Source of the DNA: Vampirovibrionales bacterium
GTDB taxonomy: Bacteria; Cyanobacteriota; Vampirovibrionia; Vampirovibrionales; JAJTHC01
DNA: 64,000 bases
Assembly (NCBI GenBank): GCA_035285025.1
Contig: JAYKHY010000029.1
Span: 10,955-74,954, forward strand
Direction of reading: 5' to 3'
In this document: piece by piece, positions 35,568 to 53,768 of the stretch
Numbering within the stretch: the first letter of the stretch is position 1
How the letters are laid out: each line of letters starts with the position of its first letter
Program-made: the position numbers and the translations under genes
The notes under the pieces: generated by a model
The model's input: the letters and a program-made list of their open reading frames with translations, nothing else
Told to the model about the DNA's origin: nothing
Database searches by the model: none

Positions 35568-37967
35568 ATGTCGTTAACGATTCACGCGCTGCCATTAGCC
35601 AGTCGCCCGCAAGCAAAAAAAACCGAAAAGTTGCATTTTGGTCAGGTTACCGAGGCTGCTGCGAACGTTCAAGCTTCTGCGGCTGGGCTCAACGCGGCAC
35701 CTGGGATTCCGCAAACGCCCATGACAGGGATTTGGGTTTCTGCGCAAGGTTACCACCCCGAATGGGAGAGCAAGCACGGCGTTAAAAAAATTGGTGGCTT
35801 AGCCGAGGTCAGTTATTCAATTCCGCAGCAGGTGCGCGCTGCGGGCGTCGATTTGCGGCCGCTGTTCCCGCTGTTTAAAGGCTTCGAAAAAATCGGCTTT
35901 GAGCCCACCGGCTTGCCGAGCGTAACGGTTAAAGGCCCAGATGGCAAAGACGAAGTCTACAATCTGCTCTGGAAAAACCAGAACGGCGTGATTCATTACG
36001 CCGTGAGCAGTGATAGCTTGAACGTGCTAGAAAACATCGACAAAGCCAAACCAATCGAGGTTACGCCCGAGCAGCTGCCAGAATCGGAGCGTAAAGCCCG
36101 TGGCTTAAATGGTCACGGCACAGCTCCTGGCACTTCGGGTAACACGCCTGTAGTTTATAGCTCGGGTAATACGCCTGTCGTTAGTGCCAGCTCGGGCAAT
36201 ACGCAGGCTGTTTTTGCAAAACAAGAAAAAATCATGGTTAACCCAGAGGTCATTAAGCTAAACCAGGCCATCGCCGAATTTTTGCCGATGCTGGATGTGG
36301 CTGGCAAGGCGCAGTCGTCCCAGCCCTGGCAAATTAAGGGCGGCAACAAAATGGTGATTGCCAATGACTGGATGAACGCCGAACTGTTGCCTGCGCTTGC
36401 GATTAAACACCCCGATTACAAAAATCAGGTGCGGAGCATTTTTTACACGCACAACACGTACGATTCTACGCAAACCAAATTGCAGCTTAAGCTGGCCGAA
36501 AAGCTCGGGATTGCAATACCAGAAGATTTAAAAAACGAGCATACGTATCTGCACGCGCCCGAACCGCCGGCCAACCCAGTGCTGGCGTGGTTCCAGGATA
36601 CCTTGGGCCTGCGCCCCGCGCCCCAGAAAAAAACCAACGATCTGGCCGAGTGGGTCAGTGCGCTGCGCATGGGTGTGCGGTACGCCGATGACGTTGTGAT
36701 TAACCAACGCTTTAAAGAGAGTATTTTAAGCGGCCGTTTTGGCGTAGATGATGAATTTAAGCGGTTTTTGGCGCAAAAAGAATCCGACGGCAACGTGTTT
36801 GATATGCAGCATGCCCTGAGCAAACTCGAAACGCCCGTTGCTAACAAGCATCTTGGCACCGAGGGTTATACGCCTCTGGAGGCCAGTACGCATAAAGCGT
36901 TGCTGGCAGAGCCGGCTCAAAAATTTGCGTCTAAGGCATCGACTTGCTCAAAGCCGGAGTCTGCAAGTGTGCATGCAACACGGCCTCAGCCCGTCTCGAT
37001 TTGGCAGCAAGCGCTGCACTGGGCGCAGACGCTACTGGCGAAGCTGGGGATGGGTAAAACGCCTGATCCTCTATTCACGACGGTTTCGCTACCGAAAGTT
37101 CAAAAAACGCGGCTGGCCGTAAACAGCCCAACGCTTTCGCCAGCCATGCAAAACTTAAAACAATTTAAGCAAACGAATAAGCTTGCGTTGCAGAAGCAAT
37201 TTGGCCTGCCGCAAAACCCGAACGCTGTATTGTACTCCACCACGCTGCGCTTTAGCGATATGCGTCAAAAAGGCTCGCTGCTGCTGATGCAAACGCTCGA
37301 AAAATTTATGACCGAGCACGAGGATGCGCAATTTATTCTGAACATTAAAGCGGGTGATAAAGCCAACACGCCGATACTAGAAGGCTTTATTCAAGCCTTG
37401 GAAAACAACCCGGTCATTCGAGACCGGGTCAAGTGCATTGGCTGGATTAGAGAGACTGAGCGCGCCCGGATTTTGGCCGGTGCCGATTGCATGATGACGC
37501 CCAGCGGCTACGAGCCCTACGGGTTAACGCAACTGGAGCCCATGGCCTACGGTGCCGTACCCATTGTAAGCAATCGTGACGGGTTATTCGCCAGCGTATA
37601 CGATCCTAGCGTGCTGCCAGCGTACAATCACCACCCCGGTGAGGCTAAAAAATCGGCCTACGGGCAAACCGGTTACATGGTCGATTCGGATATGCTGGCT
37701 TACATGCAGGCGCTTGATGGCGCGGGTCCCAGCGGACCTGACCCGCAAAATCCAGCGATACGCAACGCCAGCAAGGCGTTTTTAAAAACCCTAGAGCGTA
37801 CGTATCGCGATGCGCAATCGGGCGAGGCGCTCAAGGTAGCGAGCAATGCCCTGCGCTATGTGGCCGCAGAGCATAAACCGGATGCCATAACCGAAAAATA
37901 TTACGTGCCGTTGTTCAAGCACGTTCAAACCGCGCTCGAAGCACCCAAACTCGCGCAATCGGCTTAG
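35568..37967 (+). CDS. Glycogen/starch-synthase-like glycosyltransferase (GT5 family) with large insertions (799 aa)
   Basis: The N-terminal motif KKIGGLAEV corresponds to KTGGLADV of GlgA. The C-terminal motif SGYEPYGLTQLEPMAYGAVPIVSNRDGL corresponds to [22 protein letters not shown]. About 300 aa of extra sequence separates the two halves. Confidence 0.7.
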   Translation: MSLTIHALPLASRPQAKKTEKLHFGQVTEAAANVQASAAGLNAAPGIPQTPMTGIWVSAQGYHPEWESKHGVKKIGGLAEVSYSIPQQVRAAGVDLRPLFPLFKGFEKIGFEPTGLPSVTVKGPDGKDEVYNLLWKNQNGVIHYAVSSDSLNVLENIDKAKPIEVTPEQLPESERKARGLNGHGTAPGTSGNTPVVYSSGNTPVVSASSGNTQAVFAKQEKIMVNPEVIKLNQAIAEFLPMLDVAGKAQSSQPWQIKGGNKMVIANDWMNAELLPALAIKHPDYKNQVRSIFYTHNTYDSTQTKLQLKLAEKLGIAIPEDLKNEHTYLHAPEPPANPVLAWFQDTLGLRPAPQKKTNDLAEWVSALRMGVRYADDVVINQRFKESILSGRFGVDDEFKRFLAQKESDGNVFDMQHALSKLETPVANKHLGTEGYTPLEASTHKALLAEPAQKFASKASTCSKPESASVHATRPQPVSIWQQALHWAQTLLAKLGMGKTPDPLFTTVSLPKVQKTRLAVNSPTLSPAMQNLKQFKQTNKLALQKQFGLPQNPNAVLYSTTLRFSDMRQKGSLLLMQTLEKFMTEHEDAQFILNIKAGDKANTPILEGFIQALENNPVIRDRVKCIGWIRETERARILAGADCMMTPSGYEPYGLTQLEPMAYGAVPIVSNRDGLFASVYDPSVLPAYNHHPGEAKKSAYGQTGYMVDSDMLAYMQALDGAGPSGPDPQNPAIRNASKAFLKTLERTYRDAQSGEALKVASNALRYVAAEHKPDAITEKYYVPLFKHVQTALEAPKLAQSA

Positions 37968-38067: not shown

Positions 38068-39303
38068 ATGCAAACGGGCCTGACACCCGTCCCTTATGTT
38101 CCTTATTCGGCTAATTCCATAGCCAGCCCCTGGGCTGCGCTGCCGAACATTAACGCGGCTCCCGTGCCTCCTTCAGGCACACAGGCACCGTGGCAAGCAC
38201 AAAATACCCCGGCAGAACCCCAAAAAACCGAAACGTTTAAATCGGATTCAATCAACACTGGAATTTCGCTTACAGACCCGATTACGCAAACCGAGCGCGG
38301 GATTAAAACCAAAATTTCGGAGTACGTGGTTCATCTTAACCCGCTGCAAAAGCTGGCTTTAAGCGCAAAAAACACGTTTATCGAGACGCCGAAATCCGTG
38401 GTAAAAGGCCTAAGCGGTAGCCCGGAGTTTGATTTTGGCGATAAAATGCGTGTTGCGCAGATTCCGTATTATCTGGGTGGCTTGGCGCTGGTGGGATCTT
38501 ATCTGGCACCGGGCGGTAAAAATGCGCTAAAAAACGCGTTAAAGCCAGCACTGGCCTGTGTTGGTTATATTGTAGGATTCCCGCTGGCCAACGCAACCGT
38601 AAACACGCTGTACAAGTTGCGCTATGGCGTAGATTTGGATATGCGTTATCACACCAGTAAAAATACGATTGCGGGCGTCTACGATAGCGCCGTGTTTGTG
38701 CGCGAAGATTTGCTTCCGCCTGATGACTTTGCCCGGATGCGCCGTAAAATGGGGATTCCCGAGGGGTTAGCCGCGCCTGACTGGGAGGTTAAACGCCAGC
38801 TCGATGGATTGATTCCTGCCGCAAAAGTAAGCAAATTATTACTCGGTAACGTCCTGGCCGCTGTGGGTGCGGGATATCTTGCGCAATTGCCGCACTGGCA
38901 GCAAATGCCCGCCATAATTCAGGGCGTTAAACTGGCGTTGGCAACGCCCGGGCTGAGCCCTTCGCAAAAGCTTCGTGATGTAGTTACGGTGTTAAAGCGG
39001 GCTGCTGTCCCCGTAGTCAGCCAGCTTAAGGCACCCAGGTGGCCTGGCGTGTTGGCCGCAGGGAGCGTGGCAGGTGCATTAGGGTATACTTTGCTGGGTA
39101 TGCACCGGGCCACCACGCGCAAGCAATATCAGACGCCTGGCAATGTTGCCAGCACGTTTAAGCCCTTAATGCCTAACACGCCTGCAGCAAGTCCGTTTGG
39201 CCTGCTGCCTGGTGTTACGAGCAACCTGCCTGCCATAAGTGCTTCCTTATGGCGCTCGCAGTCTGCGCCTCCAGAAGCGTTAATGACGCAAGGAGGCTAC
39301 TAG
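38068..39303 (+). CDS. Hypothetical membrane protein (411 aa) encoded between the GT5-like and GH13 genes
   Basis: It has several hydrophobic helices. Its stop lies 2 bp before the start of the next gene. Confidence 0.45.
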   Translation: MQTGLTPVPYVPYSANSIASPWAALPNINAAPVPPSGTQAPWQAQNTPAEPQKTETFKSDSINTGISLTDPITQTERGIKTKISEYVVHLNPLQKLALSAKNTFIETPKSVVKGLSGSPEFDFGDKMRVAQIPYYLGGLALVGSYLAPGGKNALKNALKPALACVGYIVGFPLANATVNTLYKLRYGVDLDMRYHTSKNTIAGVYDSAVFVREDLLPPDDFARMRRKMGIPEGLAAPDWEVKRQLDGLIPAAKVSKLLLGNVLAAVGAGYLAQLPHWQQMPAIIQGVKLALATPGLSPSQKLRDVVTVLKRAAVPVVSQLKAPRWPGVLAAGSVAGALGYTLLGMHRATTRKQYQTPGNVASTFKPLMPNTPAASPFGLLPGVTSNLPAISASLWRSQSAPPEALMTQGGY

Positions 39304-39305
39304 GC

Positions 39306-42300
39306 ATGCAGGCGCATCTGGCACAAAGTATTCCGGTTAGCCAATGGCCGCAGGCCTATGCGCAAAGCTTGGGCCAAAACGCCCAAACCTTATCGCGCGG
39401 CGTCGAGGGGCGCCCGGTTAACGATCCCGAACTTGCCGCATTAAGCGATAACTTAAAGCGCGGCAGCAGCCTGATGATCGCATCGTTAATATCGGGCGGG
39501 ACCATGGGTAAGCCTATGGCTGGGCGTGAGCTGCTTGGATTCGCGGGCTGGTACGCAGCCATGGCGGCAACGCCACGCCTACGAAACATCTTGACCCGCC
39601 TTACGACCGGGTTGCCCATGGGGCAAACGTTTGTGAGCACGCAAGGTGAGCGGCAGCGGGTTTTTAACGAATCCAGCCGAATTCCTCGGCATTTGTTACC
39701 GCAATCCATGCAGCAGCGCGTTGCGCGTCGTATTAACGATACGCTCGATAACGTTCAGGATTCGATGCAAAAAATTTCGGCTCAGGCCGAGACGGCTTGG
39801 CTGCTTGCGGCAGGGCCGTTAACGCCTGTTTTGGCAAGCGCATTGAATCACGTGACCGCGGAACCCATTGGTCGCGGGGTGCATGCGTTGCAAAAGGCAC
39901 TGCCTGCATCGCCCGAGATTCAACTTAAGCGTCTGGCGGGCGAAGGCACGAGCGATTTGACGCACTGGTGGCACGATTTTGATCGCGCACTGACGCGGGG
40001 CTTGAACCTGGGGTCGCTAAAGCACGGCCTGCAAAGTACGCCTCAACAATTGGCCCAACATTTGCATAGCCTCGGTCAGCACCCCGAGCAGCTCGCCCAC
40101 GCCAAAACACTTTTTGAAACCCAGCGCACCAATATTAATGCGATTGTATCCCAAAGTACCCCCTTGATAGAAAAATCGAATAGTGAAGCAGGGCGCGCAG
40201 CTGAGCATGCGATTAGCGGGGCGCGCAACAGCCTGCGCCGGTACCGGTATCTGCTGGAAAAACTCCCCACGCTTAGCAAGGCACAGATCGAGACCGCGCT
40301 CAATGGCAACACGCTAGCCGAATTCCAGAAAATGATAACCGCGGGCCGATTTAAAACCGCCATGGCGATGCTGGGCGATTGCCCCGATGCAACCAACACG
40401 CTTGCCGCCGCTTTACGCGGGCGTAAATTTAACGAAGCCTTCAAACGGTTTGGCGTGCATCCGGCCAAGCACCTGCAGCAACTTGCCGAAGCCTCGTTGC
40501 GGACGCGCTTATGGCGCACGCGGTATTTGGGTATGTTGGGCGGCGGCGTTGCCGCAAGTTGGGCGTTATATAGCGCGCTTGCGCCTAAAAAATCGCCACC
40601 GGCGCAACATCAGCACGTTACCAGTGCTAACGCGACCAACTTAAACCAGTTAACGCAAGATCCTAAAATGCAAAAAGCCTTGCACTCGGCGGCGCAAAAC
40701 GGCTCGTTAGATGTTGGCGTGCTCAGCCAGATGCCTGCGGCAGAAGGGTTTAAGTTGCTCCAGGCTAAGCCGATGGATACCGCGAATGCGCCCCGCTTCG
40801 GGCAGACTCCGTTTGTGCCAGGTATGGGCTCGTTTACGCCCGCAATGCCGCTTAACACTCAGCCGCGTTTAGCGTTTGCGCCGCCATTACAAGACGCGCG
40901 GCGCATCGCCGGTGCACCAGCCGCCGGATACGATGCGCCTATTCAAAACTATAATTCTGTCGCAGGTGCGTCAGCCGCCGGATACGATACGCCTTTTAAA
41001 AACACGCCCGCCATGCCCTTAAAACGCATGCTGCAAAAGAATCAGGCCCAAATTTACGCCATTAACATCCGGACGTTTGCCGCACAAGATAAAAACGGCG
41101 ACGGCAAGTTCGACTGGCAAATGGGCGAAACCGGTACGTTTCTCAACGCCATCAATCGGCTTGATGAACTGAAGGCGATGGGCATAAATACCATTCATTT
41201 GCTGCCGATTGTGGATTCTGCCGACATGCTGAAATACGGCAATGCAGGCAGCGTGTACGCCGCCGAAAACATGCACCGCGTGAACCCGCAGTTTGTTTCG
41301 CCCCAAGAGCAAGCCGCCTTTGCGGCGACGCATAACGGCCAAAAACTGACGCCAGAACTGGCGGCGCGCATGTTTGTTGATGCGTGCCACGCACGCGGGA
41401 TTGCGGTGATGGCCGATGTGCCCAGCTGCGCAGGGTTGGATTTGGCGATTGCCAAACCAGAGCTCATTGAGCTGGATAAGCAAGGGCATTTTAAAATCCC
41501 CAACAACTGGGTCGATATTTTGATGATGAAACCCGATGGGCCCGAAGTGCGGCAGTATTTTGACGGATTCTTCAAGTTAATGGCTAACGGGCTGGGCGTA
41601 GACGGGTTCCGGGCCGATGTTGCGCGCGCCCGAACCGATGATTTTTGGCGTTGGGCCATTGGCCAATACCCCAATCATGGTTGGTTGGGCGAGACGTATA
41701 CGGAAGAAACGTCCGCGATTAACAATATTCCAGCGGATCGCCCCGCCGAGTTGCTGAAGGCCGGATTTGACAATGTGTACGGGCAGTTTCACATCTTCCA
41801 CAACTTGCACAGCGCCGACGATTACATCCAGTACCTGACAAACGCGTACGAGCACGAGTTGTTACCTGCCGCCCAAGCTGGGCGAGGCGGTAAATCTTTA
41901 TTGGGCTCGTTTTACACGCACGACGATCACAGCTCGTTTAACGTAGGCGGCCCGTTATTGATGTTGCTGCAAGCGGGCTTAATGGCGAGCCAGCCGTGGA
42001 CGACGCCTTACGTGATTGATGGCCAGCAAACCGGCGACCCCAAAGACCTGGATATTTTTAACTTTGGCCCGCGCCCCGGTGGGAATAATCCAGAAATTGC
42101 TGCGATGATGCAGCACCTGTTTACGTTGCGAAATTCAACAGCGCCCAGCGCGCCTTTCATGACCAATGCTGCGCCAGGCGCTCCGGCTATTGGCGATGTC
42201 CTGCGCTCGGGAGCGTTTATTCCGTTGCCGGTTAGCAAGCCGCGCGACGGTGCAAACCAGATTATTGCCTTTGCGCGCCATTTAAACGGTAAAACCGTGT

Positions 42301-42554
42301 TGGTACTGGCCAATAAAGACCTGAACGCGCGCAGCGCTGGCAAGATTACCCTGCCCGGTGCCCTGCCGGGCATGGCCATGGCTCGCCTGACGCCAGCCTA
42401 CGGCCAGCCCAGTCAGATTAAACTGAACGAAGTGGGCGCGCTGAGCGTGGATTTGGCCCCGGGCACCTTCCATATGTTTGAAGTCGCGTTGCCTAATTTA
42501 CCCATTAACGCCGCAAATGCTGGCTTAAAAGCGTATCCTGGAGTGTTGGGGTAA
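39306..42554 (+). CDS. Membrane-anchored GH13 (alpha-amylase family) protein with an N-terminal domain of unknown function
   Basis: The C-terminal half carries GH13 regions: region II DGFRADVARA, region III WLGETYTEE, region IV FYTHDDHS, and an LPIVDS TIM-barrel start. A single predicted TM helix (YLGMLGGGVAASWALYSALAP) sits near residue 430. I chose the start at the Met at 39306, just after the upstream stop. Confidence 0.7.
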   Translation: MQAHLAQSIPVSQWPQAYAQSLGQNAQTLSRGVEGRPVNDPELAALSDNLKRGSSLMIASLISGGTMGKPMAGRELLGFAGWYAAMAATPRLRNILTRLTTGLPMGQTFVSTQGERQRVFNESSRIPRHLLPQSMQQRVARRINDTLDNVQDSMQKISAQAETAWLLAAGPLTPVLASALNHVTAEPIGRGVHALQKALPASPEIQLKRLAGEGTSDLTHWWHDFDRALTRGLNLGSLKHGLQSTPQQLAQHLHSLGQHPEQLAHAKTLFETQRTNINAIVSQSTPLIEKSNSEAGRAAEHAISGARNSLRRYRYLLEKLPTLSKAQIETALNGNTLAEFQKMITAGRFKTAMAMLGDCPDATNTLAAALRGRKFNEAFKRFGVHPAKHLQQLAEASLRTRLWRTRYLGMLGGGVAASWALYSALAPKKSPPAQHQHVTSANATNLNQLTQDPKMQKALHSAAQNGSLDVGVLSQMPAAEGFKLLQAKPMDTANAPRFGQTPFVPGMGSFTPAMPLNTQPRLAFAPPLQDARRIAGAPAAGYDAPIQNYNSVAGASAAGYDTPFKNTPAMPLKRMLQKNQAQIYAINIRTFAAQDKNGDGKFDWQMGETGTFLNAINRLDELKAMGINTIHLLPIVDSADMLKYGNAGSVYAAENMHRVNPQFVSPQEQAAFAATHNGQKLTPELAARMFVDACHARGIAVMADVPSCAGLDLAIAKPELIELDKQGHFKIPNNWVDILMMKPDGPEVRQYFDGFFKLMANGLGVDGFRADVARARTDDFWRWAIGQYPNHGWLGETYTEETSAINNIPADRPAELLKAGFDNVYGQFHIFHNLHSADDYIQYLTNAYEHELLPAAQAGRGGKSLLGSFYTHDDHSSFNVGGPLLMLLQAGLMASQPWTTPYVIDGQQTGDPKDLDIFNFGPRPGGNNPEIAAMMQHLFTLRNSTAPSAPFMTNAAPGAPAIGDVLRSGAFIPLPVSKPRDGANQIIAFARHLNGKTVLVLANKDLNARSAGKITLPGALPGMAMARLTPAYGQPSQIKLNEVGALSVDLAPGTFHMFEVALPNLPINAANAGLKAYPGVLG

Positions 42555-42667
42555 GTATGGGCTATCAAGGGTGTTGGTATTTAAAACCAAAACAGCTTGC
42601 CAAAGGGGGCAAGCTGCTGGTTTTGACTATCAAGCTGGTTTTGACTATCAAGAAGTTTTTAAGTTTA

Positions 42668-43189
42668 TTAGCCTTTTTTAATAGGCCTCAAGATGTTTTG
42701 ACCTTTTGCTACCCGGAGTCCTGTTTTAATAGGGTTCAAGATGTCTTTACCTACCTGTTGAGCTACCTCCGAGAGTTGGTTGAAGGTTTGACGACCTGTT
42801 TGATCAGCTTGCAAAGCCAGATATTTACTGTTGTAACGAAGTTGATTCAAACCGGACATCAATGTCTGGGCTGTATAGCTATCTGCAAAAGCTCTTCGGG
42901 TGGCAATATCGGCCGGAATGATTTTTTGGAGCCAAGTGTCTCTGACCACTTTAGTCAGTTCTGGAGCCGTTTTTGGGGAGGCTTGAGCTTCTTGTTTCAA
43001 GCCGACCCAAGCTTTGTTTGCAATACCCCCCAAATCGCTCCCAATACCAGACGTCGCTGTGATAGGAGCGCTTGTCGGTAAATGTAAAGGCGCTTTAAGT
43101 ACCTTGACAACATCTCCCCCGCCATAAAGCGCCGTCCGCGCAGCTAAATCTAGAGAAAAGCCTTTAACCAATAAATTTTTGAAATTCAT
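42668..43189 (-). CDS. Hypothetical Ala/Lys/Gln-rich helical protein (173 aa) encoded antisense between the two GH13-like genes
   Basis: Its composition is more protein-like than the overlapping plus-strand ORF. The C-terminus is encoded by imperfect 28-bp direct repeats (ILNPIK/ILRPIK). Confidence 0.35.
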   Translation of the reverse strand: MNFKNLLVKGFSLDLAARTALYGGGDVVKVLKAPLHLPTSAPITATSGIGSDLGGIANKAWVGLKQEAQASPKTAPELTKVVRDTWLQKIIPADIATRRAFADSYTAQTLMSGLNQLRYNSKYLALQADQTGRQTFNQLSEVAQQVGKDILNPIKTGLRVAKGQNILRPIKKG

Positions 43190-43365
43190 CTCAAAATCTC
43201 CCCTTCAAATTGATTCAACAAACTAGCCCTAACGTGATCTTATTTAACCGGTTCTCTAATGTATGGATAAAACCATTTGGCTTTTTTTGTGCATGACCTA
43301 ATGTTTTAAAAACAGACTTTAAAGCCTTTGCACTTTTTTTGCTTCAGTCGTTTTAAAGAAACACG

Positions 43366-46300
43366 ATGCGTATTCAGCCCAACACGCCCCTAAAAACGCC
43401 CCAAAAACCAAGCTTCTCCGGATACCGCCCGCACCCGGAGGCCCCTGGCCATGCGCAGATTTATCATCCTGACGCGATTAGCGCTAAAACCGTGAGCGTC
43501 ACTATCCGCGAGCCGCAAGGCAACAACACGCAAGCAGACACCGAAAAAACCTACGCCCTGGAGCAAACCCCCGACAAGCGCCAGTGGGTACTAAAAACCC
43601 CGGTTAAGGCTGGCAGCCATTACGCCTTGATGATTGACGGCAAGCGCCACCTGGATGCCTTGCATACACAGCTTTTAACCAGCGACAGCGTTTCCCGCGC
43701 AGGCGCGGGCGCCATCGCGTCTCAAGCATTGCCGTTTAATGTTATCGATAATCCGATTCGCCCAGCGCTGTTGCGCTCGCCCGGCAGCATGCTCGATATT
43801 TTCCAGCATAGCCTTCGGCAGTCTGGTAATGGGTCTGCGGGTACTCCAGGTACTCGTATCACAACCCACTTTAATCAAAAACAGGGCTCGGTGGGTAAGG
43901 CGTTAAATACGCTGCTTAAACAGCCTAATATGGATGCGGCGAAAACCGTTTTGCTCAAGCCGTTTAGCCAGGGCGGCTACTGGATTGAGAACCCGTACCA
44001 GCTAGACCCCCAGAGTTTTGCCAACGAGCCCGAATTTGACGCGTTTTTAGACACGTTGCTCGCCAACAATCAGCAGCCTGCCATGGATTTAGCGTTGGTC
44101 AACCAGAATATGACGGGCGGGCAGTATCAGGCCAACCTGATTCATGGCGCGCGCAGCCCGTTTTGGGAATGGTTCCGAGATAATCAAGCGGAGCGTTCGC
44201 TTGAATCCCCGCTGCCGCGCGTGCTGCAAGAAGGCTTTAAACACGGCATATTGCCTACCAAGTATGATCCAAGCACAGGGCATCGTGATCAAATTGACTA
44301 CGAGCGTTTTCAAGTGCATCTCTCCAATGCGCCGAGCCAGTCTAACTACCAACCTCTTCAGCAAACCTGGCTGAAAATTACGCCCACGCCCTTGTCTGAT
44401 GATCACGCTTACGGCCCGGAAGACAGCGTGCATCCGTACGAGTTTCCGGTTGATGCCAACCTGGCGCAGGAAAAACTCGCCGAGGCCCAAGCGCGTGGCC
44501 TGAAGCCCAACGACGAAGCTTACAAACGCCTTATGTTGGATTGGCCGGCTACCCGTTCTGAGGGGGGGGCTCGCCCGGCGCAAACTATTGATGCGCAATG
44601 CCGCGATGATGCTTTAGCCAAATGGAACGGGAATGTTGATGTTCCTTCGCTGAATCCTGATAATCCGCAAGTACGTGCTTATTTACAGGGTGCCGTCACG
44701 CACTGGGTGGCGCGTGTTGTTAATCATCAACGCGCGGCACTGGCCCAGCAACTGCCCAATGACTTAACCCCCGCAACGCTGTTGGCATTTGAACAACAAC
44801 GCTTTAAGGGCCTGCCCGTATTGCCCGATGCCGCGCTAAATCAGGCGCTTACGCCGCCAAAGCCCCAGGGCGAACCGGCGCAAGTACTCACGCAAAAGCT
44901 AACGCATCAGTACGCGTTAAGCGCTTTGCCGTTGCCGAGAACGCTCAACCATTGGCTTTCTGCAGTTAGCCTGCCAGAATTTAACAAAGGGCTTCAAAAC
45001 ACGGCACCTGGCGGCTGGTTTGCAGGCGAGGGTTTTGCGCACGCGCTGCAAAATAAGCTCGAGGCTGCTACCCGGCAGCTCCCGCAGCCGGAGCAGGCAA
45101 AGCTGTCTAGCGATCTGGTTCAGCTGGTGATTTTACAAAAACTTGCCCCCAAGCTGTATTTGCAATTGCTAACGGGCTCGCCCGATGCGAACGGAGCGGG
45201 TGAGCGCCTGCTAAAGCATTTGCCGCAAGTTGTGTTAAAAAGTGATCCCGTCACCGTGGCACGCTTGCTGCCAGAAACTTTGACCCGTCAACTTAATGAG
45301 CTGCCACCAGAAACGGTTGCGCATTGGCTTACAGAAGCGCTTGAGCCCCTTGACCCGGTTAAGTTGAGCGTGGCCGATGCATTAATTAATCACCACGAGC
45401 TTGGGCCTAATTTAAGGCTTGATGCCGCGAAAGACGTTGCCGACTTTGATCCGGTTTACGCCGCCCCAACCCCCGAGGCACGAGAAAAAGCGCTCGATAA
45501 AAGCATGCAACATGTCGTTGGCTTCTGGAACGAACTGCTTGCGCCAGCAAAGGCGATTTATCCTGCCTTGCGTATCGGTGCCGAGGTCACAGATATCCAT
45601 TTATTGGGCGACGGTAAGCCAGAGTTAATGAAAAAAAGCTACGAGACCCTGATGCAGGCGTTTGATAGCATGCCTGAAATGGACCATGGCTTTAGTAAAC
45701 TGCACGAGCTGGTGCATTACGCCCAACGACCCTTTGAGGCGGGCAATAGCCAGGTTGAACCGTTTGAAGGGAACGCCAAAGCTAACTTCTGGAATGAGCT
45801 TTCTGCGCGGGCGCATAAAATTCCGCTGAAAACCCAGCACAACTATCAAACCTTGGGCAGCAGCCACGATTACGCCACGGTGACGCACAACCTGCTGCAT
45901 AACCCGTTACTGTTTTTTGCCAACGATGAACCCTACCGCGGCGTTAAAGACGAGTTTTCGGATGCCCGCCTGGAGCTGAGCAGCAAGGCCGTGTTTGAGC
46001 CCGTTCGCGCGCAATTAAAACAAGCGGGCATCGAAAATCCCGGCGACGCGCTGTACAAACTTGAGCAGCACTTGGCCAAGGTTAACAATCCGCTGGTTCA
46101 AGGCGTTTTAGATGGCAAAGCCAAGGAAGCCAGCAATATGCTTGGCCCCACCCCTCGCGATTTAAAAGCCGCGTCGCTTAAGGCTGTTGCGCAAGTGGCC
46201 TCGGCGCAAGCGCTGGGTTTACCAAACGACGATGCTAAAGCTGCCCTAATCCAGGCCTATGAGCGCGTATTGCTCGAGCCCAGCGCCGCCAAGGCCAAGC

Positions 46301-47178
46301 GCGCGGTGCTGAATAACGCTTTAGTCAGCTATTTTAAAGCCAACAAAACGCCAGAAGCACAGCAGCAGCAACTTTTTAAAGCGATTCTGGATGCCAGCTT
46401 GCCCGAAAACGCCAACGATAGCCGTGCTAGCCAACGCTTTGGCTACTTGCCGCTCGAGGCCGCCTGGGATCAGGTTTTAAAACGCCTGCCCCAAACATTT
46501 GCGCTTAACGGGTTGCGCGGAGCCGACCTTAAACAGGCCCTTATGACGCGCACGCTGCAAACCACGCAGCTACCCCAAAAATTCGAACGCCTGGTCGCCA
46601 TGCAGGTGGCCCTGCCGGGGCAACCTTCGGTGTATTTGCACGATTTATTTGCCCCCAGTGGCGGCGAGACTGATAACAACGCCTTTGTCCAAAACCGGAA
46701 CGAAATTTTTGTAACCACAGGCCGTGGTGATACGCCAGCACAAACACAGATGAAACAAAAAACGCTGGCCTTGCTCGCGTTGCGCAAAACTTTACCCGTC
46801 CTGAACGACGGGCTGGTGCGTGACGTTGCGCCAGAAAAAGCCCAGCAAGTGGCTTTAAATCAGGCAGGTGTTATGCCGATTGTCCGTGATAACGGGCGCG
46901 ATCAAGCGATTGTGCTAATTAACACCGGAAAACCCGCCGCCATCGATTGGTCGAACCGTGTGGGCGGCCTTGAGACCTACGGTCACCCTAGCGCAACGCA
47001 ACCCGTGGCTCGAAACTTTAAGCTGGACTTAAGCGCCCTGGATATGCCCGTGGGGACGCAATACCAGTCAATCGATTCGGGTGAGCGTTACGAGCTTAAC
47101 GCACAGCATCAGTTGGTGCATAGCAAAACCAAGCAGGGGATCGACATCGAAACGGTCAAGGCGCTTAAGCGCCTGTAA
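43366..47178 (+). CDS. Giant CBM48-like + GH13-like (alpha-amylase superfamily) protein, 1270 aa; catalytic status uncertain
   Basis: The N-terminal ~100 aa resemble CBM48/E-set domains (YHPDAISAKTVSVTIREP…GSHYALMIDGKRH). A DVPSLNPDNPQVRAYLQGAVTHW motif is typical of GH13 between regions I and II, and LGSSHD resembles region IV. I could not find a clear GFRxD nucleophile motif. Confidence 0.55.
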   Translation: MRIQPNTPLKTPQKPSFSGYRPHPEAPGHAQIYHPDAISAKTVSVTIREPQGNNTQADTEKTYALEQTPDKRQWVLKTPVKAGSHYALMIDGKRHLDALHTQLLTSDSVSRAGAGAIASQALPFNVIDNPIRPALLRSPGSMLDIFQHSLRQSGNGSAGTPGTRITTHFNQKQGSVGKALNTLLKQPNMDAAKTVLLKPFSQGGYWIENPYQLDPQSFANEPEFDAFLDTLLANNQQPAMDLALVNQNMTGGQYQANLIHGARSPFWEWFRDNQAERSLESPLPRVLQEGFKHGILPTKYDPSTGHRDQIDYERFQVHLSNAPSQSNYQPLQQTWLKITPTPLSDDHAYGPEDSVHPYEFPVDANLAQEKLAEAQARGLKPNDEAYKRLMLDWPATRSEGGARPAQTIDAQCRDDALAKWNGNVDVPSLNPDNPQVRAYLQGAVTHWVARVVNHQRAALAQQLPNDLTPATLLAFEQQRFKGLPVLPDAALNQALTPPKPQGEPAQVLTQKLTHQYALSALPLPRTLNHWLSAVSLPEFNKGLQNTAPGGWFAGEGFAHALQNKLEAATRQLPQPEQAKLSSDLVQLVILQKLAPKLYLQLLTGSPDANGAGERLLKHLPQVVLKSDPVTVARLLPETLTRQLNELPPETVAHWLTEALEPLDPVKLSVADALINHHELGPNLRLDAAKDVADFDPVYAAPTPEAREKALDKSMQHVVGFWNELLAPAKAIYPALRIGAEVTDIHLLGDGKPELMKKSYETLMQAFDSMPEMDHGFSKLHELVHYAQRPFEAGNSQVEPFEGNAKANFWNELSARAHKIPLKTQHNYQTLGSSHDYATVTHNLLHNPLLFFANDEPYRGVKDEFSDARLELSSKAVFEPVRAQLKQAGIENPGDALYKLEQHLAKVNNPLVQGVLDGKAKEASNMLGPTPRDLKAASLKAVAQVASAQALGLPNDDAKAALIQAYERVLLEPSAAKAKRAVLNNALVSYFKANKTPEAQQQQLFKAILDASLPENANDSRASQRFGYLPLEAAWDQVLKRLPQTFALNGLRGADLKQALMTRTLQTTQLPQKFERLVAMQVALPGQPSVYLHDLFAPSGGETDNNAFVQNRNEIFVTTGRGDTPAQTQMKQKTLALLALRKTLPVLNDGLVRDVAPEKAQQVALNQAGVMPIVRDNGRDQAIVLINTGKPAAIDWSNRVGGLETYGHPSATQPVARNFKLDLSALDMPVGTQYQSIDSGERYELNAQHQLVHSKTKQGIDIETVKALKRL

Positions 47179-49247: not shown

Positions 49248-50735
49248 GTGGGTGTACCCGTTTCAATGCCGGTTCAATCGTCCGAAGATACCGCAACGTT
49301 AGACGCGCTTGCGCAGCGTGCCAGCCATGGCGGGGCCATTGGCGCAGGCGCTAGCCCTAAGCTAATGAGCCTTCCGCAATTACTGATGCTGGCTGTCGGG
49401 ATTATCGGCTTTCAGTTTGCCTGGAGCACCCAAATTGCGCTCTCTAGTCGTGTGCTCGAGCCCTTGGGCGCGGACCCGTTTCTGTTTGGACTCATCTGGT
49501 GTGCGGGCCCTATTACCGGCATGGTTGTGGCACCGCTGGTGGGGATGTGGAGCGACCACACCCTTACGCCGCTGGGTAAGCGCTGGCCGTATGTGCTTGC
49601 GGGCGCTGTTTTGGGCGCGATTGCAATGGTATTGTTCCCGCAATCGCCCAATTTGTGGGTTGCTGCCATCATGATCTGGCTGATTGACGCCTTTATTAAC
49701 ACGGCCCAAGGGCCGTATCGCGCGTTGGTACCCGACATGGTGCCGCGTGCACAGCAAAGTATTGCAAACAGTTATCTGAATTTTGGGGTTGGTACGGGTA
49801 ACGTGATTGCCATGGGCTTTGCGCCGCTTGCGCTCGCGATGCTTGGGCAAGAAATCCCGATTCAGTCCCAGTATGTGATTTCGGCGGTGGTGCTTGCGGG
49901 TATTACGATTTTAACCGCGCTGTTTGTCAAGGAAAAGCCGGCGTCCGCACAAGCGTCGGTTGACACCATTGGCGCCGAGCCTGCGCCTGCCATTACGGCG
50001 GGGATTGATGCGGATAAAGCCATCGGCAAGGCAACGCCCGGCGTGGCGCAAATGTTTAAAAACTTTGCCGCCGCCAGTCCCGAGATTCATAAAATTTCGG
50101 CGGTGCAGTTCTTTACATGGGTCGCCTTGATGGGCATGTTTATTTATTTAACACCTTATGTCACACATCACGTGTTTAAAGTGCCCGATTTGACTCGTCC
50201 GGAGTTGTTTAGTGCAGCTCAGATGGCTGGCTTTAAAACGCTCGAAAAAACCGCAACCAACACAACGCAACAGGCGTTTGCTGCCTTTAACCTAGTGTGC
50301 TTACTCCTCTCGTTACCGCTGGGGTATTTAACCACCAAGTTCGGGAAAAAGCCGGTGCTCAGCTTTGCCCTGCTTACTATGGCCGCCGGCTTCCTGACGG
50401 CGCCGTTTATCAGCACGCCGCTTCAGGTTATTGCCATGCTGGCGTGTGCCGGGGTGGCCTGGGCAACAACGCTGTCAATCCCGTTTTCAATCTTGTGTGA
50501 TCATATGCCTAAAGGCCAAGAAGGCAGCATTATGGGCATGTTTAACGTATTTGTGGCCGCGCCGCAGCTGATTAGCGCAATTGCCGTTGGCTGGGTTATT
50601 AATCAAATGCCGGTGGCTTTGCCGGTGGGCTATACCCACGCCTGGTGGCTGCCGTTTACGGTGGGCACGGTAAGCCTTATTATTGCTGTGGGCGTTTTGC
50701 AAACCATTAAAGAACATAAACCCCTCCGCGCTTAG
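49248..50735 (+). CDS. MFS transporter, GPH/sucrose-transporter-like family
   Basis: It has twelve predicted TM segments. The start is a GTG 8 nt after AGGAGA. A D-x-x-x-R-type loop occurs after TM2, and the central loop is long and hydrophilic. Confidence 0.7.
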   Translation: MGVPVSMPVQSSEDTATLDALAQRASHGGAIGAGASPKLMSLPQLLMLAVGIIGFQFAWSTQIALSSRVLEPLGADPFLFGLIWCAGPITGMVVAPLVGMWSDHTLTPLGKRWPYVLAGAVLGAIAMVLFPQSPNLWVAAIMIWLIDAFINTAQGPYRALVPDMVPRAQQSIANSYLNFGVGTGNVIAMGFAPLALAMLGQEIPIQSQYVISAVVLAGITILTALFVKEKPASAQASVDTIGAEPAPAITAGIDADKAIGKATPGVAQMFKNFAAASPEIHKISAVQFFTWVALMGMFIYLTPYVTHHVFKVPDLTRPELFSAAQMAGFKTLEKTATNTTQQAFAAFNLVCLLLSLPLGYLTTKFGKKPVLSFALLTMAAGFLTAPFISTPLQVIAMLACAGVAWATTLSIPFSILCDHMPKGQEGSIMGMFNVFVAAPQLISAIAVGWVINQMPVALPVGYTHAWWLPFTVGTVSLIIAVGVLQTIKEHKPLRA

Positions 50736-52703: not shown

Positions 52704-53768
52704 TTACAGGCGGCCCGTATCCCACTGTGAACGGATGTTGGCGGGTTCGAGCAAGCGATTGAGCTCATCGCGTGTTGGCAGCTCGCTGAGGCCCTGCTGG
52801 CGGTACAAGTAAAGCCCCGCCGTAATAACACCCCGTTGCGCGCATGCCAGCAAGCTTTGGCGTTGCGCCAGGCCCGCAATCAGGCCGCCGTTAAACGCGT
52901 CGCCCGCGCCAATGGCGTCCAGTGAGCCAATGGCGGGCGGTAAGGATTCTGGCCAATAGGCTGGAATCGTCATGGTTTCGCCCCTAAAACGAATATAGCA
53001 CCCTTCGTCTGCCGCTTTTAATATCACCAGCGGAACGCCCTGATAACTTAAATAATCCAGTACCTGCTCGGGTTGGGTTAAGTTACACAGCGGCCTGCAA
53101 TCGCCGGGGGTGCTTAGGCTTAAAACGTCGGTCAGTGGTAAAATCTGGGCCATCGCTTCCAGGTACTTCGAGGTTTTTTGCCATAAATCCGGGCGGTAAT
53201 TCGGATCAAACACCGTGGTCCAGCCAGCCGCGCGAGCGTGTTTAAAGCCGTGCAACACGGTTTTACGCGCAGATTCCGAAATTGCCATCGAGATGCCCGA
53301 GGCAAAAAGAATGCCCGGAGTTTTAGGGCTAAATGCGTTTTCGGGCAGGTCATCTGGGCACAACAGCGCGCTGGCACTGTTTTTACGGTAATACACAAAT
53401 GCCGAGACATCGGCATTGCCCCGCGCACGAATCACCAAACCGGTGCTGCACCCCTGCGGCCCCTGGGTTTCCATGAAACGCTGCGTTGGCCAGCTGATGT
53501 TTTCTTTGGCTAATAAATCGGCAATGCCTTGCCCAAACGGATCCGCGGCAAGTCGCGTCACCAAGCTGGTAGGAATCGTTTGTCGCGCTACCGCAACTGC
53601 AGTCGTAAGCACATCGCCGCTGTAGCGCTTGGTAAATTCAAATTCGCTCTGCACGCTTTCTCGAGACAAAAGCTCGGTGAGTGGCTCACCGATGATGACC
53701 ACAGGCATGGGCAACGCGTGCATTTTGTTCGCACCCGGCTTGGGCCCCTCATTTGGCCTCTCGTACAT
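52704..53768 (-). CDS. PfkB-family carbohydrate kinase (ribokinase/KdgK-like)
   Basis: The C-terminal DAIGAGDAFNGGLIAGL motif (PfkB signature 2) and an N-terminal GG-containing region are present. Confidence 0.8.
   Translation of the reverse strand: MYERPNEGPKPGANKMHALPMPVVIIGEPLTELLSRESVQSEFEFTKRYSGDVLTTAVAVARQTIPTSLVTRLAADPFGQGIADLLAKENISWPTQRFMETQGPQGCSTGLVIRARGNADVSAFVYYRKNSASALLCPDDLPENAFSPKTPGILFASGISMAISESARKTVLHGFKHARAAGWTTVFDPNYRPDLWQKTSKYLEAMAQILPLTDVLSLSTPGDCRPLCNLTQPEQVLDYLSYQGVPLVILKAADEGCYIRFRGETMTIPAYWPESLPPAIGSLDAIGAGDAFNGGLIAGLAQRQSLLACAQRGVITAGLYLYRQQGLSELPTRDELNRLLEPANIRSQWDTGRL

Follow-up and report, generated by a model that had tools for sequence, protein, structure and literature searches.

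A GH13 enzyme fused to a predicted membrane protein of a three-gene cassette conserved in Vampirovibrionia

The DNA analyzed here is a stretch of 64,000 nucleotides (the window) from contig JAYKHY010000029.1 of a Vampirovibrionales bacterium (assembly GCA_035285025.1). According to the listing of its open reading frames (ORFs), positions 39306–42554 of the forward strand form a single unbroken ORF encoding a protein of 1082 amino acids (aa), identical to a 'hypothetical protein' of a Vampirovibrionales metagenome-assembled genome (MAG). This ORF, delimited also by a full-length homolog and by domain-wise homologs, is a natural fusion of two neighboring genes of a cassette. One is memB, a name given here to an unannotated membrane-protein family, and the other encodes an enzyme of the GH13 (alpha-amylase) family. 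The complete cassette, memA-memB-GH13, is conserved across the class Vampirovibrionia (Melainabacteria). As a whole, the data are best explained by an alpha-glucan enzyme held on a membrane scaffold of MemA and MemB, an interpretation that we derive from sequence and consider fairly probable. Coordinates below are those of the window, on the forward strand (+) unless stated otherwise.

The cassette was delineated by scanning one genome per GTDB species with a GH13 alignment, which gave at least 490 loci; 84 distinct ones were checked with local hidden Markov models (HMMs). The order memA-memB-GH13, or memA followed by the fusion, is observed on one strand in 78 of these 84 loci, and the other six are truncated by a contig end. 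In other loci, the local memB HMM matches the gene just before GH13 with E values from 1e-91 to 1e-123. All credible lineage titles among the loci belong to Vampirovibrionia, including Vampirovibrio chlorellavorus NCIMB 11383 (the trio at locus L010) and many Gastranaerophilales. Several cassette contigs (L030, L034, L035, L049, L051, L052, L063, L070) are titled Methanobacteriaceae archaeon, Muribaculaceae, Bacteroidaceae, Anaerovoracaceae, Clostridium sp., etc.; most probably, these are mis-binned or mislabeled MAGs. memB and GH13 are separate genes in 72 of the 78 complete loci. Measured from the memB stop, the first GH13 ATG lies at a median of -1 nt, with overlap in 44 of the 72 pairs, and in four contigs with a free GH13 gene the two unannotated genes immediately upstream have overlapping stops and starts. 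Judging from this arrangement, the unfused memB and GH13 genes are translationally coupled.

Fused memB::GH13 genes occur in six loci, namely the window, L001, L013, L015, L026, and L027. In a neighbor-joining tree of the GH13 domain, the fusions were never monophyletic in 100 bootstraps, and therefore fusion (or fission) happened more than once. Two groups are supported, the window with L001 (100/100) and L015 with L026 and L027 (83/100), so that the fusions fall into two or more separate clades. In the other fused clades the linker between the two parts is only about 50 aa long. Two Vampirovibrionales MAGs, JBDIVN01 (L015 and L019) and JAJCZA01 (L027 and L025), carry two cassettes each. In both, one cassette is fused and adjoins a gene for a second, very large GH13 protein (BIG, see below), and the other is unfused, which suggests a duplicated system with diverged architecture. 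By the usual logic of gene fusion, the C-terminus of MemB and the N-terminus of the enzyme are predicted to act together, in the same compartment.

The fusion itself might be doubted. The sequence comes from a MAG, and the separate genes of most loci overlap by 1–20 nt, so that a single-base error could join them; the ORF would then be an assembly or annotation artifact, or a decaying gene, and the real products would be separate MemB and GH13 proteins. This explanation is very improbable. An independent MAG encodes the same fusion at 52% identity, with conserved blocks within the linker, and four further species-level loci are fused. In addition, all 1082 codons are open, and the catalytic and transmembrane residues are conserved. 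A start codon downstream of the hydrophobic helix, considered in the original prediction as an objection to a tethered enzyme, is indeed the rule in about 93% of species, in which GH13 has a gene of its own; the fusion in the window is nevertheless genuine, with five other species-level loci fused.

The 5' end of the gene was also reconsidered. A longer reading of 1101 aa, with an ATG at 39249, overlaps the upstream gene and was rejected because a Shine-Dalgarno sequence precedes 39306 (AAGGAGG, 9 nt 5' of this ATG) and homologs begin at the equivalent Met. Specifically, the N-terminus of the 52%-identical protein from the second MAG (1099 aa) aligns to the Met of 39306 (MQTHLA vs. MQAHLA). 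No N-terminal hydrophobic signal was found, the best 19-residue Kyte-Doolittle (KD) mean in the first 120 aa being 0.83. Word-index searches with the full-length protein or the memB alignment returned two proteins each, in the former case the query itself and the 52%-identical homolog only; low-complexity words probably filled the candidate list. Relatives were therefore taken from a domain-wise search for the GH13 part and from an exhaustive HMMER search for the memB part.

Residues 1–427 constitute a complete MemB protein, predicted to be integral or membrane-embedded, with up to four hydrophobic segments. The HMMER search with residues 1–445 against 1.84 billion representatives yielded 242 relatives at E ≤ 1e-3, including 48 with E ≤ 1e-10, and these residues align end to end with 21 relatives (22-member alignment). 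Most relatives are stand-alone proteins of 450–560 aa; a GH13 domain is also present in only 4 of the 149 other relatives listed. The full length range is 446–1286 aa, due to a longer helical middle. No family in Pfam or NCBIfam matches memB, its profile gave only coiled-coil-like chance matches with PDB sequences, and a Foldseek comparison of the N-terminal model with PDB folds gave nothing significant (best E value 0.65, template-modeling score about 0.1). Likeness of this model to alpha-pore-forming toxins or four-helix sensor domains was at noise level and was not used. The original prediction described a helical, Gln/Ala-rich domain of unknown function tethered through a single transmembrane (TM) helix. 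This bitopic model, with one span between two soluble domains, is not supported: stand-alone membrane proteins are homologs of the N-terminal part, which contains four hydrophobic segments conserved in the family and belongs to these multi-segment proteins as a full member.

Hydropathy scans of the family repeatedly show segments at relative positions of about 60, 90, and 185 and then a last helix, as a rule the strongest, some 30 aa before the C-terminus; the statistics below come from an HMM alignment of 232 members. The first two segments, H1 (residues 53–66) and H2 (residues 76–90), are peaks of family-mean hydropathy separated by a short loop (39462–39575). Their best 19-residue KD values have medians of 1.02 (H1) and 1.34 (H2), and the core is charge-free in 41% of members for H1 and in 81% of 229 members for H2; in the AlphaFold2 (AF2) model they correspond to helices 40–65 and 72–101. 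The juxtamembrane region that follows (residues 91–150; 39576–39755) is the best-conserved part common to memA and memB, as seen in the alignments and in the profile-profile block described below; in the AF2 model, its strands 108–110 and 116–118 form a predicted beta-hairpin. H3 (residues 161–181; 39786–39848), defined by invariant columns and hydropathy, carries the motif W...AGP.TP with invariant W165, A169, and G170 and near-invariant P174. Its median KD is 1.43, it has no charged residue in 83% of 230 members, and it forms the center of a 49-residue AF2 helix (150–198).

Between H3 and the last segment, AF2 places a helical bundle (residues 200–385; 39903–40460) with a predicted local distance difference test (pLDDT) score of about 90–96, whose length varies across the family. 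The length difference between memB proteins stems wholly from the helical region between H3 and the terminal helix. Thus, memB has about 450–560 aa in most Vampirovibrionales vs. about 800–900 aa, up to 1286, in Gastranaerophilales; long ORFs are found at L003 and L029–L087 (about 790–920 aa) and in P0179 and P0181 (1224–1286 aa), and memA has only about 55 aa in this place. The last segment, TM4, was identified by hydropathy and conservation at residues 406–427 (40521–40586; about 425–446 in the 1101-aa reading). It is nearly invariant in the 52%-identical homolog and has the highest family-mean KD of the four segments (1.6; median 1.59), being charge-free in 85% of 73 aligned members. TM4 shows the pattern W-R-x-R...G-G-G, with W-R-x-R and G-K as its flanks. 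The hydrophobic helix placed near residue 430 by the original prediction is therefore real and conserved, although it is marginal in the window protein and is not the sole segment. Most likely, TM4 is the conserved C-terminal anchor of the memB family itself. The complete model of residues 1–445 (pLDDT 77.8) is all-helical except for the hairpin at 108–118, and the long helices with H3 and TM4 flank the bundle. Conserved small residues are abundant in the hydrophobic segments of memB, and the small-residue motifs of H2, H3, and TM4 suggest tight helix packing.

Several of these features weigh against a membrane location. Hydropathy is modest, with medians of 1.0–1.6: H1 is weak, a KD of 1.6 being reached by only 3% of members, and TM4, the strongest helix of the window protein, is rich in Gly, Ala, and Ser and reaches only 1.31. 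One may thus imagine that the segments are helices buried in a soluble or granule-surface scaffold, a coiled-coil or helical organizer of glycogen-like granules that carries the enzyme. The conserved G-P-x-T-P of H3, the all-helical AF2 model with its confident bundle, and a weak, non-significant likeness to soluble helical proteins would agree with that. However, the cores of H3 and TM4 (about 18–21 residues) are uncharged in most aligned members (83–85%), TM4 reaches a KD of 2.0–2.6 in many of them, and a terminal helix so close to the C-terminus, flanked by W-R-x-R and G-K, has the classic anatomy of a membrane anchor. The same hydrophobic pattern is also kept in the paralog memA. An N-terminal module outside the membrane is consequently improbable, as is the granule scaffold.

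The gene memA (38068–39303, +; 411 aa) ends 2 nt before the ATG at 39306. Its product matches no Pfam or NCBIfam family and has hydrophobic peaks at about residues 160, 248, and 327. BLASTP of the N-terminal domain against MemA gives an E value of only 1.6, and the kinship is seen by profiles only. The HMM of memB relatives matches memA at 5e-9 and its orthologs at 1e-9 to 1e-21, and hhalign of the two profiles gives a probability of 98.8% and an E value of 6.5e-17 over 171 columns spanning H1, H2, the juxtamembrane block, and H3. On this profile evidence memA is assigned as a paralog of memB. Both proteins have long N-terminal tails without a signal peptide. The link to the upstream membrane protein that was originally proposed is thus upheld, since MemA is paralogous to the N-terminal module of the fusion and the trio is found in every Vampirovibrionia locus with enough DNA.

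The C-terminal part of the fusion (residues 571–1082; 41016–42551) is a GH13 module, identified by AF2, Foldseek, and profile comparison as a (beta/alpha)8 barrel and, C-terminal to it, a beta-sandwich. The AF2 model of residues 565–1082, built from a 34-sequence alignment, has a pLDDT of 91.7 and a predicted template-modeling score of 0.92 and displays alternating strands and helices and then eight C-terminal strands. In a Foldseek search, 910 PDB chains matched at E ≤ 0.001, and all 50 matches listed are GH13 enzymes. The top one is AmyB of Thermotoga neapolitana (4gkl; E value 1e-27, template-modeling scores 0.68/0.83), followed by Lactobacillus plantarum amylase (3dhu among the structures), GlgE, TVAII/neopullulanase, and the Thermotoga maritima maltosyltransferase. 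The family profile also finds 4gkl among PDB sequences (E value 2e-36). The Pfam model PF00128 (Alpha-amylase) scores 18.4 bits (E value 1.4e-3), below its gathering threshold of 22 bits, and GH13 membership therefore rests on profile and fold evidence; many homologs do have a precomputed PF00128 match. NCBIfam gave only weak partial matches on this module. Residues 565–1082 as the query retrieve more than 900 homologs, the best 120 at E values from 1e-161 to 1e-91, and nearly all are 540–630 aa long.

The free GH13 proteins begin with 50–120 residues rich in Pro, Gln, and Ala, or in Asn, Gln, and Lys in low-GC lineages. The counterpart of this disordered N-terminus in the fusion is the Pro/Gln/Ala-rich low-complexity linker at residues 428–570 (40587–41015), which, except for short blocks, is poorly conserved between the two closest homologs. 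No signal peptide, lipobox, or TM segment was found in the N-termini of the 88 full-length free GH13 proteins screened (of 120 homologs). Hence, the lack of a signal peptide noted originally applies to the fusion and to its free relatives alike.

The claim that the catalytic residues are intact also stands. The motifs GFRADVA, GETYTEE, and HDDH occur at residues 767, 795, and 872, and a profile alignment matches D771, E796, and H872-D873 to the Asp of conserved sequence region (CSR) II, the Glu of CSR-III, and the His-Asp of CSR-IV of AmyB. Among 34 family members, D771, E796, and D873 are invariant or at least 90% conserved. CSR-II, VDGFRADVA (residues 765–773; 41598–41624), aligns to VDGFRCDVA of AmyB; it contains the nucleophile D771, the invariant Arg two residues before it (R769), and the invariant D766 and G767. 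CSR-III, WLGETYTE (residues 793–800; 41682–41705), contains the acid/base residue E796, which is invariant and aligns to the Glu of WISETH in AmyB. In CSR-IV, SFYTHDDH (residues 868–875; 41907–41930), H872-D873 aligns to the H-D of NHD in AmyB; both residues are at least 90% conserved, and D874 is invariant. The C-terminal module is thus probably a catalytically competent alpha-glucan hydrolase or transferase of the GH13 family, as far as the alignment and the model tell.

CSR-I, DVPSCA (residues 704–709; 41415–41432), aligns to DMVLNHA of AmyB and has D704 and P706 invariant and S707 and C708 at least 90% conserved. The usual Asn-His of GH13 is thereby replaced by Ser-Cys family-wide. The CSR-I His is near-universal in GH13. 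This substitution counts against a conventional activity: with Cys in place of His, specificity, and even activity itself, could differ from those of known GH13 enzymes. The T. maritima maltosyltransferase (1GJU), itself accepted as a GH13 enzyme, also lacks Asn-His in CSR-I (DFIPRTA vs. DVPSCA), and this likeness makes transferase rather than hydrolase chemistry possible. Its similarity to the window family is concentrated in the N-terminal half of the barrel (profile E value 1.8e-25), whereas the second half aligns poorly and its Foldseek rank is 40; moreover, it is a soluble, cytoplasmic protein of a thermophile without a membrane partner.

The closest described enzyme in both sequence and fold is AmyB (4GKL), a maltogenic amylase of subfamily GH13_48 (phmmer E value 1e-9). 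The two share the (beta/alpha)8 core, the aligned Asp/Glu/Asp, the CSR-II pattern VDGFRxDVA, and the G-Q at the end of CSR-VII. Identity is only about 19%, and the window protein has Ser-Cys rather than Asn-His in CSR-I, Ala rather than Cys before the nucleophile, and T-H-D-D rather than N-H-D in CSR-IV. In contrast to AmyB, the window family also has a disordered N-terminus or a membrane module, is restricted to Vampirovibrionia, and always follows memA-memB. In the published signature of GH13_48, Cys precedes the nucleophile in 81% of sequences (Ala, Val, or Leu in the others), N-H ends CSR-I, N-H-D ends CSR-IV, L-[DN] ends CSR-V, and G-Q, a trait of GH13_48 and GH13_49, ends CSR-VII (PMC11239784). 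The window protein has the G-Q (PYVIDGQQ aligned to PLVHNGQE of AmyB) and, in GFRADVA, the minority residue Ala before the nucleophile. Filing under GH13_48 was rejected, as S-C in CSR-I and T-H-D in CSR-IV deviate from N-H and N-H-D.

GlgE (GH13_3; 3ZSS and 5CGM) is likewise among the top folds (template-modeling scores 0.67–0.69; profile E value 3e-20). The one paper on Melainabacteria glycogen in the literature searched reports glgC, glgA, a GH57 glgB, and, on the basis of BLAST, 'GlgE' (preprint 10.1101/2021.06.18.448987). Assignment of the window family to GlgE was also rejected: it has no NCBIfam GlgE match, GlgE scores below AmyB, and the N-terminal domains of GlgE are absent. The module thus appears, by sequence comparison, to represent a lineage-specific, unassigned GH13 group closest to the AmyB (GH13_48), maltosyltransferase, and GlgE types.

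In the window, the cassette is embedded in a neighborhood whose theme is alpha-1,4-glucan chemistry beside two membrane proteins; the genes flanking this cluster are unrelated housekeeping genes. The first gene of the apparent operon (35568–37967, +; Pfam Glyco_transf_5 and Glycos_transf_1) encodes a GlgA-like GT5 glucan synthase of 799 aa, compared with about 480 aa for a typical GlgA. It matches the NCBIfam glgA model TIGR02095 at an E value of 3e-30, below the cutoff of that model, and contains a KxGGL-type motif, KIGGLAEV, as well as EPYGLTQLE. Two low-complexity insertions and a disordered N-terminus with KLHFGQ are present; cassette-adjacent orthologs have up to 997 aa. The GT5 gene ends 100 nt before memA. 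A strong, G+C-rich terminator-like hairpin with a stem of 9–11 bp lies at 42591–42618, 37 nt past the stop of the fusion gene. It is the top-ranked site of a consensus scan on both strands (a consensus match only) and is a probable end of the GT5-memA-fusion transcription unit.

An 811-bp gap of lower GC (42555–43365) separates the fusion gene from the next gene and contains two overlapping ORFs without a family match, 42557–43081 (+) and 42668–43189 (-). The next gene, BIG (43366–47178, +), encodes a highly divergent GH13 protein of 1270 aa. It has no Pfam or NCBIfam match; a profile of ten orthologs matches neopullulanase/NPDE-type GH13 structures at an E value of 1e-29 and those of SusG only weakly. 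The catalytic triad is intact, with invariant R684, D686, and K689 of CSR-II, E740 of CSR-III, and D835 of CSR-IV, and a large insertion lies between CSR-V and CSR-II. BIG is located divergently upstream of the cassette in Vampirovibrionales and downstream of it in some Gastranaerophilales. Neither GT5 nor BIG has a signal peptide. Two further sugar-related genes lie 2–6 kb downstream of the glucan cluster, for an MFS/GPH sucrose-type sugar transporter (49248–50735, +) and a PfkB-family sugar kinase (52704–53768, -), and at L001 a gene for an ABC sugar-binding protein lies just upstream of memA; the glucan cluster may be linked to sugar uptake.

The mechanism that we favor can be outlined as follows. 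MemA and MemB would form a hetero-oligomeric membrane scaffold. In most species the free GH13 enzyme would be a separate polypeptide, presumably docked on this pair, and in the window genome it would be tethered covalently to MemB through the disordered linker. The enzyme would act on an alpha-glucan at the membrane surface together with GT5 and BIG. Its most plausible location, in our estimate, is the cytoplasmic face, favored because the free GH13 proteins, GT5, and BIG all lack an export signal. An upstream GH13 start that could hide such a signal is excluded because the gene starts overlap the memB stop. The long N-terminal tails of MemA and MemB, free of signal peptides, fit a cytoplasmic N-terminus, and a cytoplasmic C-terminus would follow with two or four spans. 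If the enzyme is indeed cytoplasmic, the bundle flanked by H3 and TM4 would lie on the periplasmic side, like a sensor domain.

A number of observations count against this picture. Lys and Arg are enriched on both flanks of every hydrophobic segment, most of all just before TM4, and counting of positive-inside charges over the 232 members did not favor any one topology. The Arg-rich stretch before TM4 (net charge about +2.5) fits a cytoplasmic bundle and an outside C-terminus. The weakness of H1 makes a three-span topology (H2, H3, TM4) possible, with the N-terminus inside and GH13 outside. In bacteria, Pro-rich linkers are commoner in proteins located outside the cytoplasm. The proposed partners adjoin the cassette in a minority of the 84 loci, GT5 in 6 (homologs at L002, L008, L009, L010, and L017) and BIG in about 17. 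Finally, no annotated homolog was recovered, every name being 'hypothetical'.

Another scenario, accordingly, places the enzyme on the periplasmic face, which we judge rather unlikely. In its explicit form, also unlikely, TM4 is a signal-anchor (N-in, C-out), MemA and MemB anchor or even export the enzyme, and the latter trims exported alpha-glucan or incoming maltodextrins. The strongly positive, acid-free stretch before TM4 and the weaker one after it speak for this scenario, as do H1, too weak for a confident TM segment, and the extended Pro-rich linker, a general feature of envelope proteins. The ABC component at L001 and the transporter about 2 kb downstream in the window would fit it as well, and an oligomeric pore could be built on the conserved small-residue motifs of the TM segments. 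However, the free GH13 proteins have neither a signal peptide, a lipobox, nor a TM segment, and two genomes contain both fused and free versions, for which the same compartment is expected. The partner GT5 must be cytoplasmic, since enzymes of the GlgA family use cytoplasmic ADP-glucose. No known secretion component is conserved in the neighborhood in four contigs and the 84 loci. Glucan export, raised as a possibility in the original prediction, is not supported, as the lack of export signals in all three enzymes favors a cytoplasmic face.

Short motifs in the disordered regions were also noted. The motif [RKH]-F-[GS] is present in GT5 (HFGQ, 35630–35645), in the linker of the fusion (RFGQ, 40791–40802), and in BIG (FSGYR, 43408–43422), although RFSGYR of BIG may belong to a folded N-domain, as its first strand. 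It is found in five of six GT5 N-terminal regions vs. 0.1 expected from shuffles, and also in some free GH13 N-termini (loci with the motif are L002, L008, L010, L013–L017, L026, and L027). A second motif, D-x-F-x-R, was counted in 20 of the 88 free GH13 N-termini (vs. 0.2 expected), all from the Vampirovibrio-genus subclade. Both may be docking motifs. The idea that the D-x-F-x-R motif was lost upon fusion was dropped, as its confinement to one subclade makes the test uninformative.

In a broader and quite tentative interpretation, which we regard as doubtful, MemA/MemB, GH13, BIG, and GT5 together would form a class-wide membrane-integrated alpha-glucan machine with motif-recruited enzymes. 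It could be a receptor-like device, in which the periplasmic bundle between two TM helices controls a cytoplasmic glucan enzyme, or a complex for synthesis, processing, or export of an envelope alpha-glucan. Either way, motifs such as [RKH]-F-G and D-x-F-x-R in the disordered N-termini of the enzymes would serve to recruit them.

Membrane-held glucan enzymes of other kinds are known. SusG, a Bacteroides lipoprotein amylase, is likewise a membrane-held GH13 enzyme with dedicated membrane partners, but the known membrane or lipid anchoring of amylases relies on signal peptides and lipid anchors. SusG has both of these and an outer-membrane location, whereas the window protein has no export signal, a multi-segment anchor of the inner-membrane type, and a paralogous partner. 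Stbd1 of mammals and MFP1 with starch synthase SS4 of chloroplasts are helical or coiled-coil tethers of glucan enzymes with hydrophobic anchors, including a GT5 with a long extension. They use contacts through a carbohydrate-binding module or coiled coil, not a GH13 fusion. No sequence or fold relation to these tethers was detected, and they serve only as leads to how the cassette might work.

GH13 enzymes are among the best-studied carbohydrate enzymes, and the catalytic part of the fusion is a new branch of this very well-known family; the memA/memB family and the cassette are undescribed. In the literature searched, we found no description of a memA-memB-GH13 system, nor of a GH13 enzyme anchored through fusion to, or a shared operon with, two paralogous multi-segment membrane proteins. 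A whole class, which includes the gut Gastranaerophilales and the algal predator Vampirovibrio, keeps a GH13 subfamily locked to two paralogous membrane proteins, and repeated fusion is a Rosetta-stone signal for an undescribed physical complex. The analysis thereby defines a membrane-protein family not covered by Pfam, a GH13 lineage with Cys instead of His in CSR-I, and a giant GH13 protein invisible to Pfam. If the system proves to be no more than an amylase parked at the membrane, several hundred 'hypothetical' genes could at least be annotated better. With the anchor and the enzyme in one polypeptide, the fusion offers a cloneable entry to the membrane organization of storage or envelope alpha-glucan metabolism in the non-photosynthetic sister lineage of Cyanobacteria.

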